Shown: one piece after another, positions 6,688 through 56,064 of the stretch
How positions within the stretch are numbered: position 1 is the stretch's first letter
Layout: each line of letters opens with the position of its first letter
Source: Octopus vulgaris
Lineage: Eukaryota
Direction: 5' to 3'
Length of the DNA stretch: 64,000 nt
Assembly: GCA_951406725.2 (NCBI GenBank)
Contig: OX597814.1
Location: 79,546,001-79,610,000 of the forward strand
Program-made: the position numbers and the translations under genes
The notes under the pieces: model-generated
What the model was told of the DNA's origin: nothing
The model's database searches: none
Seen by the model: only the letters and a program-made list of their open reading frames with translations

Positions 6688-6742
6688 CATATCAATCGAT
6701 TTCAGGCCCTGTAGTAAAAGCTTAGCCCTCGTCAGTTAGATT
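6688..6742 (-). ncRNA. Degenerate type I hammerhead ribozyme in a cassette next to (TA)n
   Basis: Minus strand: CTGACGA-GGGCT...GGCCT-GAAA-TCGA-TT; palindromic stem III ATCGAT; stem I pairs poorly. Confidence 0.55.
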
Positions 6743-6952
6743 TACCGCAAATAAGTATATATATGTCAATGTATTCACATGTATATACTTTTCCCTGTAT
6801 TCTTCATTATAATTTTATATTCATATATAATTATAGACTTGTATTAATTTTTACCTCTACGGTCTTAAGGAATACTCGCCACTGATATTATTATTATTAT
6901 TATTATTATTATTATTATTATTATTATTATTATTATTATTATTATTATTATT

Positions 6953-7502
6953 GAGTGAGAGAGCAGTTCATGCCATCAAAGTGACACTGGGGTAAAATAT
7001 ACGAAGCCTAATATACCCATCATGACTACCCGTCTGATAAGGGTACACTAGGCACATGCATCACAACCATATGTGCGCGACATGGTGATCTCATATCGAG
7101 ATAAACAGCACATGACCTTGCAGGTGGGGCCCAGTTAGAATTTTCTTCAGGTTGAGTAGCCCATCCCGCTCAAAAGGTCCCTGAATAAGGGTTGTTTAAG
7201 GATGTTGAACGAAACACCTATGTTTCCAGAGGTGAATTATTCAAACCCCAAAGAATCCCTCTCAACACATGGCTATGATGCTCCCCCACTACTTCTGCTC
7301 GTGATCAGAGATGTACATTTCGTCAGCCACTAAGGGACATGCTCAACTGGTTAAGGTCAAACAACTGACAAGCAAATCTGTGGTATTGAGCAGAATATTT
7401 GCTGTAGCCCATCTTTTATACCAAGACAAAACAATGTACATGATAACACTTCCAATCAGTTAAGATCAGAAGCCATGAGAGCCACTGCCTGGTACTGCAT
7501 CA
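6953..7502. mobile_element. ~550-bp non-coding interspersed element flanked by (TTA)n, copy 1
   Basis: Reverse complement aligns end to end with 58036-58614 and 59698-60249; (TTA)n on both sides. Confidence 0.9.
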
Positions 7503-9244
7503 TTATTATTATTATTATTTTATCCTTGAAATATGTATATGCAGGAAATGGATAAATGTTATAGGGTCGCCTCTAGGAATAGAATTTTATACTCGCTGTA
7601 AAAAAGTATACCCGTGTTAACCATTACGCATTACGCAGCATGAACTGTCTACATTAAAAGTATTATCCTCACGAGATAAGAATCTTCGTACCGGCAACGT
7701 GTCACAAGGAACTTATTCCACACAGCATAATGGTTTGGTATTATATATAATTTGTATATAAAAAAGGCGTCGACTTTTAGGAGTATGCCTTAATGTTCAT
7801 ATGAGTCTTCACTATTCAACATACCATAGGAAAATCAAAAAATTGTACCCTGAAGGGAGAGCTTTAGACTTAATTGTTCAGTGTAGAAATCACAGGTGCT
7901 ACACTGGCGATTCCAAACACAGCTTCCAAAAATAGGAATGCTGATTCATCCATCGTCTTGCAGCAATGAAGAGAAGAAATGTAAGCAAGAGAGTCAAACT
8001 GCAGGAGACAATGGGAAGGGCAAGAAAGAAACTAAAACGTAAAAGAAAGGAATCACACCCATCCCCACCCAAGATGAAGTGAGCAAAGACATCGCATTGA
8101 AGTTCATAGCTCATCATACAAAAAAAAAGGAGAAGAAAAAAAGTAGGACTTCTGAAAGACATAACGGATGTATATGGCTATTTAGGGACAAATTCGATAC
8201 AGTTTAGCAAGGAAATTGGGTCCAGTTATGTGGATTGTATGAAAGAGAAAATATTAATAAAAATATCCGAACAAGTTTCCGGACAGCTTTACATAAAACA
8301 TCACCAGATAATAAACGTTTCCTTGGTCACTTTAACTTCAAAACAGTTCAACTGCATCATTGAGATGTACGTAAATTGTGAAATAAGAAAAAGACATGAT
8401 AGGAGGAGAGAATAATAGTTAGAAGAAGATCTGGTGTGATGTATGTATGTATGTATGTATGTATGTATGTATGTATGTATGTAGGTGCGGTTTGTGTGTA
8501 TATGTATACGTGTGTGTGTATATCTATGTATGAGTATTTATGTTAATAAAGAAACTGTTGTTATGTATTCTGGATGAGTTCTGGCAGAATTATTAGACGG
8601 AGAGAAAATAACATTATATATTTCTTCCTATTCTTGATAATCTGGTTTCAAATCCTACCTAAGTCAACATTGTCTTTTATCCTTTCAAGGTGGATGAATA
8701 AAGTAGCAGTCAAGCGATGTGTTTGATGATGTCGACTGATCCCCGCCTCTCAAAATTACCGGTCTAGTGTCTTAATCAGTAATAATAATTAGTATTCACA
8801 TTAATGCGGTGAGCTGAGAGAACTACTGTAGTTTGATGTGATGATTCCTGCCACCAAAATTTCTGGTTTTGTGCTTTTGCTGGAAATCAAAGTAGCATTA
8901 TCTTGATAAACATGTTTGGATTTAATCTGAAATCTTAAGGAACAACATGAGATAATTTCAAGCTATCACTTAGGGAGAGTTTGAAATTGATTTTCTTACT
9001 TCTCTGTAATCTGAACTCAAAGTTTACATGGATTAATTTGAATTGTAGTTAACCTGAAATTGCTGAGTAGTGGGAATTGAAATCAGAAGGGAAACATGCG
9101 TAACAAAATATTGTTCCCCGTTTAGTTCTGTTATATTAGAATCTCTGCTACATGAATCTCACTATTTACTTACTATTACCATAACACAAAACATGAACAC
9201 CGAGAAATGTGACGTTAAGGCTGATCGTACAAAAGGAGCATTTA

Positions 9245-9462
9245 CATGATTTGCTCGACCTGCTACCAAGAAATAACAGCAAAATCTCCCTAAAAAAAAA
9301 GAAATCCGCTTGCCATGAAACACTATACAAAAAAACGGGATGCCTTTGATAATGTTGTCCTACATACATTATGCCTGAATAAAAGACGGAATGGTCACAG
9401 CTGGAACGCCTTTGATCATAGGTCCGTTCGATCAGAGCTGACCTGAGGCTAATCAACAACAA
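9245..9462 (+). mobile_element. Short interspersed repeat family D ((CAA)n-ended), representative copy
   Basis: ...AAATCTCCCT...TTTGATCATAGG..GATCAGAGCTGACCTG..AACAACAA; diverged copies near 12660(-), 18460(-), 19800(+), 36160(+), 43950(+), 44225(-), 47080(-) and 62720(-). Confidence 0.6.
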
Positions 9463-53275: not shown

Positions 53276-55187
53276 TAACGATTAAATAATTAAATTTAGA
53301 AAAATTAGAAGTTGGGGAGTGTCATATTGTCTTAATGCTTTATTATCTAACACACTCACTGGTTCGATTTCCACTCATGTATTATTTATATTTTTTCTTC
53401 TGAAATTTTCATTGTGTGTCGGAAGTCGTTGTGAGTTCTTGGAAGGGTAGTAGAGGAAGAAGGCTGGTGGGGAAAGGGGGATGGGAGAATCTGGGTGTGC
53501 CCTGATGGTCGTATTTTGAATGGTCAGTGGCGGCTGGCAGTCTCAGTTCAATTCAGGAGAATATTTATATTGACAGGCTTGTTTATAGAATTAGCGTAGG
53601 TGTTATACTAAAAAACATTAGTGACAAAGTTAAGGGGTAGGGGGTGGAGAAGTAGAAGAAGAAGAAGAAGAAGAAGAAGAAGAAGAAGAAGAAGAAGATT
53701 TATCCCCCCCACCACCACCACCACCATGACCGCCCCGAAATCCAATATGGTGGTTTGATGATTATGACGACGATGATGATGATAATGATGATGATGAAGA
53801 AGAAGAAGAAGAAGAAGAAGAAGAAGAAGAAGAAGAAGAAGAAGAAGGAGAAGGAGAAGATGGTGGTGATGATCGGTCTCTTTTGCCGAACCGTGGTGTC
53901 AAGCAATGACAAACACAGACACACAAACACATACACACACATACATATATATATATATATATATATATATATATATATATATATATACATATATATATAT
54001 ATATATATATATATATATATATATATATATATATATATATATATATGATGTATGATATGTGTTTGTATGTGTGTGTACACACACATACAGGCGCATATGT
54101 GCACATATGCACACATATACACATGTATACACACATACACATGCATACATGTGCACACGTACACATACATACGTGTACATACATACATACATCCATATAT
54201 ATATATATATATATATATATACATGTATGTATTTGTATGTAGGTGTACGTGTATGTGTGTGTATTTATATTTATTGGTGTATATGTATAGACTAGCCTTC
54301 TAAGGGTGTAGACATGAATCTGTAGGTACGCGTACGTATGTGTATATACGTGAATGTATGTAGATGTATGTATGTATGAATATAACGCGTGCGTGCGTGT
54401 ATGTGTATGAGTGTACGAAGGAGTGAGTGTACGTGCTAAAGAGTGTGCGTGAGTGAATGAGTGCTTGTTTTCCAGTAGACAGATAAATGGACTGGCTGTC
54501 ATAGCCAAGATGTTTGTGACCAAGCGGCCAAAGATAACAAAAGTAATAAACGAAGATAATAAAATTAAAATTAGGGAATGGGTCTATATTTGTATGTGTA
54601 TATATATATGTGTGTATGTGTATATATGTGTATATAGGGACTAGTGTGCTGTGTGTGCATGTGTGTGTGTGGATTTGTGTGTGTATGCGTGTATGTGAGT
54701 ATGTGTGTGTATGTGTATATATATTTTTCTGTGTGTATATGTATGTGTGGTCGTGTGTGTATATATACACATGTGTGTATACGTGTATGCATGTGAGTGT
54801 GTGTATGTATACATATATGTGTATGTGTAGATATGTATATGTATGTGTAAGTGTATATATATATGTATATATATATGTGTGTGTATGTGTGTATGTATTT
54901 GTATATATGTTTGTATGCGTGTGTATATATGTATACATATGTGCATAGGTATAAGTGAGAATCTCCTTATTTACCTAAAACTCTATTCCCCCCTTTTTTT
55001 ATATATATATATATTCTTATTTTATTTTTTTTACTTTTTATTTATTCTTCTATCTAATTTAACACTGACTCCTTGACCACTCCCCCAAGTATGATATTTT
55101 GCGCTATGCCTACCCCCAAAAAGTCCCCCACCAACACCCCTTTAAACCTGCCTAAATGTATAAATGCCAATACAATTCTTGTTAACT

Positions 55188-55238
55188 AGCTTCCTGAAGA
55201 TTTCTCTTGAATGAAACAGTTCTAGTCCTGTAGAAGCT
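55188..55238 (+). ncRNA. Type I hammerhead ribozyme (complete core)
   Basis: AGCTTC-CTGAAGA-T-TTC-TCTT-GAA-T-GAAA-CAG-TTCTAGTC-CTG-TA-GAAGCT; 6-bp stem I, 4-bp stem III with 8-nt loop, U-U at the base of stem II; predicted cleavage after 55232. Confidence 0.85.
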
Positions 55239-55377
55239 CCTTCTATATAATAAATTAATTTTACTCTGCTATGTATTGAGTACCTTACTTACTGTGGTTA
55301 ACCCCGAATCAACCCGGGACCTACATATATATATATATATATATATATATATATATATATATATATATACATATATA

Positions 55378-55540
55378 CGACAGGCTTCTTTCAGTTTCCG
55401 TCTACTAAATCCACTCACAAGGCTTTGGTCGGCCCGAGGCTATAGCACAAGACACTTGCCCAAGATGCCACGCAGTGGGACTGAACCCGGAACCATGTGG
55501 TTGGTTAGCAAGCTACTTACCACACAGCCACTCATGCGCC
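55378..55540 (-). mobile_element. SINE family B 5' half, well preserved
   Basis: Minus strand GGCGCATGAGTGGCTGTGTGGTAAG...CCGGGTTCAGTCCCACTGCGTGGCATCTTGGGCAAGTGTC. Confidence 0.88.
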
Positions 55541-56064
55541 TATATTATATATATATATAATTTCAAAATGTGTAGTAAATAAACAAACGAACATATACTA
55601 AATACGCCGGCGAACAGAAAACACAGGACACCGATTCTTCATCAGTTATCCGCCAGAGGGTCAAACGCAATTTTAGCCATTATCGATAATATTGCTTCTA
55701 CTCTGGAGGCACCGATAAGAAACTTGCCAGGAATGGGACCAAAGTGACGCCAAATATTATAGTAGTTTCGCACCGGCGCGAAATCACAATGATATTTTGC
55801 GTCATTGACTGACGTGGAAAACTTAACTGCGAATATTCCATGTATCATGTCTGTCTAAATTTCCCGTCCGTCAAGTTTTCGTCTAGTCTCCTGTTTTCTC
55901 TGCTTTCGTTTCACTTTTTCTCCTTGTTGTGTTCTTTCTGTTCAAACCTTGATATATATATATATATATATATATATATATATATATATATATATATATA
56001 TATATATATATATATATATATATAAATACACGTGTGTGTGTGTATATATATATATATACATTGA

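Follow-up and report, generated by a model that had tools for sequence, protein, structure and literature searches.

The window analyzed here is a 64,000-nucleotide (nt) stretch of the Octopus vulgaris genome (assembly GCA_951406725.2, contig OX597814.1, positions 79,546,001 to 79,610,000 of the forward strand), in which an earlier reading made from the letters alone (the sequence-only reading) had reported five complete and six decayed type I hammerhead ribozymes. These sites are probably the 3' ends of about 10 unrelated families of Penelope-like elements (PLEs), both autonomous and non-autonomous. Most of them carry type I hammerheads, and the site at 55598 carries a non-circularly permuted, four-helix form that probably serves Naiad-type elements as their ribozyme. 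The type I cassettes are ordinary PLE or retrozyme ends, that is, known biology in a new host. The earlier observation was therefore confirmed in part and its interpretation supported in part; the permuted class at 55598 is the novel part.

Type I hammerheads and their PLE families

The surrounding genome measures 2.8 Gb; the window has a GC content of 36% and is rich in microsatellites. A strict type I descriptor matched the window 4 times, compared with 4 matches summed over 40 dinucleotide shuffles. With a relaxed descriptor there were 6 matches against a mean of 0.09 and a maximum of 2 in 100 dinucleotide shuffles; the same descriptor also returned a match with a U4C change at 33904+. The six intact hammerheads have cores starting at 23899+, 24556+, 37175+, 42641-, 53272- and 55194+, and each combines a C3-A9 or U3-A8 core with G12-A15.1 and U16.1-H17 in the stem order C-G-S. 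The site at 33904 deviates from this by U4C, and 55598 does not have this organization. From their sequence, the type I motifs are predicted to self-cleave. Genome-wide, the type I pattern CTGAWGA-N8-30-CGAAA occurred 51,423 times, compared with 10,957 for the reversed pattern. An Rfam scan of the window returned no hammerhead among the best 150 of 289 rows, which were mostly microsatellite artefacts, and a genome profile search with RF00163 gave 6 matches from 73 scored candidates, a figure not used as a count. One type I family absent from the window made up about half of the first 100 genome matches listed, often as inverted pairs 100-400 nt apart. The loci L242, L243 and L246 hold type I hammerheads with an insertion of about 60 nt in loop II.

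All five sites described as complete fold as type I hammerheads. The CUGANGA core they were said to have in common does not extend to 53272-, whose U3-A8 core reads UUGAAAA, and a sixth intact site, 23899+, also with a U3-A8 core, had been overlooked. The sites described as decayed were a mixed set. Those at 6688- (core 6735-) and 37995- (core 38024-) are worn members of real hammerhead families, and 46330+ may be one of an old family (8 matches, 71-78%). The site at 33898+ is not decayed, because its U4C change and extra U are the fixed state of the young family J. The site at 37405- was rejected as a hammerhead family: it is nearly single-copy, and none of its 5 other matches covers the motif.

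The cassettes are unrelated in sequence, as had been claimed: the longest common matches among 12 units of the window are merely 13-20 nt. Every type I site is multicopy, and each lies at the 3' end of a repeat family of its own. Rough first-look candidate counts were 1487 for family W, 2985 for A, 2039 for B, 523 for C, 2467 for D, 997 for E, 40 for F, 948 for G, 476 for H, 842 for J and 8 for I; the best 12-25 loci per family were examined.

At least four families (W, J, D and E, at sites 23899, 33904, 53272 and 55194) are truncated autonomous PLEs. Their reverse transcriptase (RT)/GIY-YIG frames were found in other copies, and these families are therefore not invisible to open reading frame annotation, as the sequence-only reading had supposed. 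In all four, a single frame with RT plus a GIY-YIG domain at its C terminus lies upstream of the hammerhead (for E and W by similarity), and tandem or inverted copies, an optional tail and an AT-rich target were found. Family W matches a 784-aa PLE protein at 52-60%, and other copies of W were found at 98-100%. The family D frame, of 784 aa, lies 750 nt upstream of the motif in locus L106; its Pfam match to RVT_1 is above the cut-off (E=1e-8) and that to GIY-YIG just under it. The 2.58-kb head-to-tail units of family J contain a 717-aa frame, for which Pfam gave only a weak GIY-YIG match and the RT motif was seen directly. The family E frame is present in 4 of 8 long stretches and is 40% identical to that of J, with no RT or GIY-YIG Pfam match. 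The best 40 copies of E are 100% identical across 221 nt, and its 3' untranslated region (UTR; L100:6177-9948) comprises 3,772 nt with 72% alternating purine-pyrimidine sequence, compared with 13% in the window; each insertion of E would therefore spread microsatellite-like DNA and new (TA)n targets. We take D and W to be Poseidon-like and E and J to be Neptune-like, judging from linker motifs. A further family, K (L175-L204), is presumably Neptune-like. Family K is young, with at least 150 copies and frames of up to 984 aa, and no hammerhead was found within 1.5 kb past the frame in the 14 loci inspected out of 30.

Families A and B consist of non-coding tandem units that are a few hundred nt long and bear a type I hammerhead, and two tandem hammerheads are present in L004, L011 and L014. 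In A (463 nt), in B (~305 nt) and in M (~710 nt) and N (~790 nt), two carriers of the permuted motif described below, what precedes a unit is sequence from that unit's own end. In the tandem units of A, common minority variants were found in 45 of 187 comparisons within loci, versus 256 of 6821 between loci. This fits the copying of one template beyond unit length; later duplication is also possible. Matches to PLE frames were found in 3/19 loci of A, 1/19 of B, 1/19 of C, 1/14 of F, 0/39 of G and 0/20 of H, and they have no register in common. It is highly improbable that all cassettes are 5'-truncated ends of autonomous PLEs and that no independent non-autonomous families exist. This explanation holds for D, E, J and W, and the loci examined were limited to the best of each family, but it is already unlikely for A, B, M and N, whose units are preceded by their own ends, and no PLE frame in a shared register was found in the loci of A (19), B (19), C (19), G (39) or H (20). 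Families A, B and probably C, F and H resemble non-LTR retrozymes. Contigs from three sequencing runs presumed to be RNA cover family A, a match that speaks neither for nor against expression. A different high-copy repeat (24813-24990) adjoins the 3' end of family A.

The proximity to (TA)n that had been reported was found for 9 of the 11 sites, which lie within 400 nt of (TA)6+ (35% of background positions do so); besides the known exception at 42594, 46330 is a second one (959 nt). A (TA)n tract was present within 140 nt past the motif in 21/21 loci of D, 14/14 of E, 28/29 of J, 12/13 of W and 26/26 of M (background, 18%), within 260 nt in 28/28 loci of N and 31/35 of G (background, 29%), and at 11 of 13 family A ends inspected. 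Two alternative 3' ends occur in A, D, E and J, and in inverted pairs mostly one end has the tail, of about 87 nt in A, 35-45 nt in D, about 70 nt in E and about 70 nt in J. The (TA)n junctions, dual ends and 5' inversions are textbook PLE traits, and the earlier claim of many distinct hammerhead-bearing families of PLE type, non-autonomous or truncated and inserted at (TA)n, was borne out.

The permuted hammerhead

The site at 55598- had been taken for a decayed type I hammerhead. In its family, G, the core is followed by GAAA in none of 43 matches (including duplicates and a few sister-family members). The GAAA is found about 30 nt upstream of CUGAUGA; further up is a UH site whose flanking strands pair with the stretches that follow GAAA and precede CUGAUGA. 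The strand order of the permuted form is IIa, X, IIIb-UH-Ib, IIb-GAAA-IIIa, X', Ia-CUGAnGA, with four covarying helices, and the chain is open between A9 and G10.1. Assignment of family G to type II or type III hammerheads or to C/D-box RNA was rejected, as the stems do not fit. A possible second, heavily worn permuted motif stands back-to-back with G at 55746-55815 (+), with a 9-bp helix X and a damaged core.

Genome-wide, the permuted pattern CGAAA-N20-29-CTGAWGA occurred 32,236 times, compared with 3,731 for the reversed control; when position 8 could be anything except G, the numbers were 29,532 and 23,163. A descriptor in the permuted order matched 62 times in 1.35 Mb of loci, a set partly enriched by design, versus 1, 0 and 0 times in three shuffles.

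Folding was examined in 70 of 100 listed loci (the first 30 plus 40 picked for diversity from the other 70). Stems I and III paired in 37 of them. In 31 of these 37, an upstream stem II partner of at least 5 bp (5-6) lies 20-27 nt before U16.1, and all 31 begin with G opposite C11.1. A partner of this length was found in 10% of 1088 swapped control pairings and in the downstream sequence of 3/37 loci. The fourth helix, in which the linker that follows IIa pairs with the one that precedes Ia, was present in 17/31 loci versus 12% of swapped controls. In 15 loci with perfect stems, for which no base was demanded, the site between stems III and I was 2 nt long in 15/15, U16.1 was present in 14/15, and G17 never occurred.

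In 18 gap-free related copies, 94% of cells were paired and two-sided changes were found in 18 of 24 pairs, a result reached by 0 of 500 shuffles, while slid controls paired at 14-45%. The helix that connects stems I and II at their far sides was paired in 87% of cells of this alignment. For 15 hand-picked representatives, the strands of the same copy paired at 90-99% and swapped strands at 49-57%. The permuted class is thus strongly supported by comparative evidence, and cleavage is predicted for it. In the repeat at loci L357 and L360, GAAA likewise precedes the core and a stem I is present, but a clear stem III is missing.

Several observations weigh against reading the sites as working ribozymes at PLE ends. 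The stem test failed in 33 of the 70 loci, many of which are worn or cut by (TA)n and some of which are unrelated, and the 18 aligned copies are related and were partly chosen for pairing. Family G itself has a stem II of 3 bp, its window copy lacks C11.1 and G12, and no intact permuted copy was found in the window. Adjacency to (TA)n is poor in the old families C (3/19) and H (0/26) and was found in merely 9/18 loci of B. No sequence common to A, B, C, F, G or H and families D, E and K was found that would mark an autonomous partner. In published work, PLE hammerheads cleave poorly and are dispensable for insertion in vitro (PMC4209133, PMC11167929), and 8 of 9 Xenopus retrozyme dimers remained uncleaved (bioRxiv 10.64898/2026.07.22.740005). 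Finally, a downstream stem II partner of at least 4 bp, 1-6 nt after A9, is present in 19 of 28 classes versus 38% of swapped controls, and the active fold could therefore be a plain type SGC hammerhead with a bulge.

It is unlikely that the permuted motif is such an ordinary SGC hammerhead, in which stem II forms with the short strand after CUGAnGA across a bulge of 1-6 nt and the upstream strand acts as an off-switch. The downstream partner often resembles the upstream strand, as this explanation would have it, and in its favor the known alignments in PMC10085705 have no insertions of more than 1-2 nt between core and stems. However, the upstream partner is longer and Watson-Crick paired, begins with G10.1-C11.1 and has helix X after it, as types CSG and SGC do, and no downstream partner was seen by eye in Acropora and two other published Naiads. 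Family G and its kin have the SGC order of cleavage site, GAAA and CUGAnGA, with covarying stems I and III and the helix that links stem I to stem II on their far sides, but stem IIa does not come right after CUGAnGA as in an intact block C; only the weak downstream partner stands there.

Less probable still is that the motifs, of whichever order, are hammerhead-like signals that bind protein or position the RT and rarely or never cleave in vivo. All displayed copies of the young, spreading family J have CCGA(A/U)GA and an extra U before GAAA, which its relatives with a normal core lack, and mutated hammerheads had no effect on insertion in vitro, where no RNA ends were detected at the site (PMC11167929). 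On the other side, the catalytic G8, U16.1 and H17 persist from family to family even though the stems have been replaced entirely, and viroids with U4C stay infective (PMC3088659). The fixed U4C and the extra U before G12 in family J (window copy and L247) provide a natural test of the need for cleavage.

Naiad elements and known systems

The permuted architecture was found at the ends of 7 published Naiad records (Naiad_Ovul, the record preceding it, three from Acropora and two others) when part of the 54 published consensi in the supplement of PMC8557442 was read by eye, not computed. In the same by-eye reading, 6 further records have the intact type CSG order, including Naiad-2_Nbra and Naiad-3_Nbra (identified by file position). 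A 21-nt motif taken from the published consensus of the Octopus Naiad occurs 200 times without mismatch in the genome and has 0 control matches. Because the permuted motif ends Naiad consensi from several phyla in this by-eye reading, it is likely the ribozyme of Naiad-type elements. Its carriers M and N are abundant non-coding partial tandems. No PLE frame was found in the loci of G, M or N, and among 17 Naiad-type loci extended by 4.4 kb, one retains, in the same orientation and 1.3 kb upstream, an RT remnant, with no endonuclease part seen. We infer a Naiad origin for the non-coding permuted families G, M and N. On balance, we favor the view that Naiads carry non-circularly permuted hammerheads, those of nematodes being type CSG and those of octopus, corals and others a new form opened between A9 and G10.1, with about 28,000 copies in at least 10 families here.

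The picture of PLEs and retrozymes bearing hammerheads is already described (PMC4209133, PMC7229834, bioRxiv 10.64898/2026.07.22.740005). Cervera and De la Pena (2014; PMC4209133) reported minimal type I hammerheads in PLE pseudo-LTRs. The families described there are likewise numerous within a genome and diverse in sequence, mostly single truncated copies with opposite-strand pairs, and have a palindromic stem III, a U3-A8 core and an extra nucleotide after A9. The octopus set differs in its host, in the fixed U4C of J and the long stem III of E, and in the permuted class, which lies outside the coverage of that study. Non-LTR retrozymes (PMC7229834; bioRxiv 10.64898/2026.07.22.740005) also have non-coding units with a type I hammerhead, partial tandems and co-occurring autonomous PLEs; here, by contrast, the copies are dispersed, mostly 1.1-2.4 units long, and have PLE tails and inversions, and there are no long arrays. 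Two RT start sites giving an optional tail, and AT-rich targets, are also known for the Anolis Poseidon PLE (Frangieh et al. 2024; PMC11167929), whose tails are 30-40 nt long, compared with about 70-87 nt in A, E and J.

The permuted form shares with the SGC and CSG types (Eckert et al. 2023; PMC10085705) the cleavage-site block before the GAAA block, a short Ib-IIb linker, a fourth helix joining stems I and II and the same core. It differs in that stem IIa opens the motif at the 5' end and CUGAnGA closes it at the 3' end, which splits block C, assumed to be uninterruptible. Judged from its sequence, the form corresponds to type CSG with the chain opened between A9 and G10.1. It thus lacks one defining feature of SGC, while likely working like SGC and CSG. 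The non-circular hammerheads in PMC10085705 came from metatranscriptomes and metagenomes, with one weak bacterial GCS candidate as the only case in a known organism, whereas the permuted form is carried by tens of thousands of retroelement copies in the genome of an animal. The Naiad study (Craig et al. 2021; PMC8557442) describes the same (TA)n targeting, tails and inversions, its elements have the same motif at their 3' ends, and its table notes 'HHR_core' and 'half_core', including for the Octopus Naiad_Ovul. It concludes that Naiads are without canonical hammerheads, whereas by our reading the Naiad ends fit full permuted ones. Ribozymes go unmentioned in the accessible text of a recent repeat annotation of Octopus (PMC13282606), and PMC13725137 only cites Eckert et al. 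No published report of the permuted form was found in a literature search that was short on subscription papers, so its absence is unproven.

If Naiads do carry permuted hammerheads, this would resolve the puzzle of Naiads thriving without hammerheads and remove the argument derived from it that hammerheads merely parasitise PLEs. Non-circular hammerheads would move from unassigned environmental RNA to high-copy animal genomes. The permuted form would be the first class of permuted hammerheads seen in a known eukaryote and would far outnumber the 583 type-SGC sequences of the discovery paper (PMC10085705). It would also break the rule that CUGAnGA must join stem II, and the core would need no A9-G10.1 bond. 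Descriptor-based hammerhead and retrozyme surveys all miss the permuted form, and genome counts would therefore need to be redone.

Proposed insertion cycle and features of the window

The copy families, frames, ends and covariation seen in the sequences suggest cleavage, RNA circles and a mobilizing partner, and an insertion cycle can be proposed by analogy with PMC11167929 and PMC8557442. The PLE RT/GIY-YIG protein would nick a (TA)n tract, and reverse transcription would be primed at one or the other of two fixed positions, 30-230 nt beyond the ribozyme; the short end and the tail end would result from this choice. An early stop or an inversion of copying would leave short ribozyme-bearing stubs. 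The non-coding units of 305-800 nt may be copied beyond one unit length from circular or tandem RNA. This RNA would be freed or circularized by ribozyme cleavage, a step that insertion may not require. For the permuted form, a pseudoknot would bring the normal core together in space without the A9-G10.1 bond, and the cut would fall after H17.

Table 1. Positions of features in the window (clade labels presumed; hammerheads identified by fold and core)
Feature	Positions	Strand	Remarks
LINE-like element	2932-6342	-	Endonuclease and RT frames in several pieces
Family F element	~6531-6885	-	Terminates in (TA)n
Family F worn type I hammerhead	6684..6741	-	Core 6735-6729; palindromic stem III; relatives keep 6-bp stem I
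U6 snRNA-like match	10247-10353	+	52 bits vs gathering score 44; gene or retrocopy
Family W, 5'-truncated Poseidon-like PLE	22001..23945	+	5' part 22001-23036 inverted (-)
Family W minimal type I hammerhead, U3-A8 core	23892..23931	+	Predicted cut after 23924
Family A non-coding 463-nt unit	24187..24812	+	~1.3 units, short 5' inversion
Family A type I hammerhead	24551..24609	+	Predicted cut after 24604
Family J, 3' remnant of young autonomous Neptune-like PLE	33881..33987	+	Between (TA)n tracts; hammerhead 33898-33960
Family B non-coding unit, ~305 nt	36826..37265	+	Type I hammerhead 37171-37213
Family H worn type I hammerhead	37985..38030	-	Core 38024; relatives intact, palindromic stem III
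Second worn family-H-like hammerhead	38425..38478	-	Core 38472; absent from the sequence-only reading
Family C type I hammerhead	42603..42645	-	Core 42641; old short non-coding element ~42400-42780
Family I, possible old minimal hammerhead	46330..46364	+	Weakly indicated
Family D, 3' UTR and end of autonomous Poseidon-like PLE	53187..53830	-	U3-A8 hammerhead 53238-53275
Family E, 3' end of very young Neptune-like PLE	53927..55325	+	Microsatellite-like 3' UTR; hammerhead 55188-55238
Family G, 3' end of non-coding PLE-type element	55557..55745	-	Ends in (TA)n
Permuted hammerhead, worn copy	55639..55713	-	GAAA kept in 25/34 family copies
Permuted copy, stem IIa	55713-55711	-	
Permuted copy, helix X	55707-55702	-	
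Permuted copy, stem IIIb	55695-55692	-	
Permuted copy, U16.1	55691	-	
Permuted copy, A17	55690	-	
Permuted copy, stem Ib	55689-55684	-	
Permuted copy, C11.1 and G12	55675-55674	-	Changed
Permuted copy, stem IIIa	55670-55667	-	
Permuted copy, stem Ia	55651-55646	-	
Permuted copy, CUGAUGA	55645-55639	-	

Outside these families, a frame at 58686-59264 (+) resembles the C-terminal zinc-knuckle/endonuclease part of what we take to be an R2/R4-like element.

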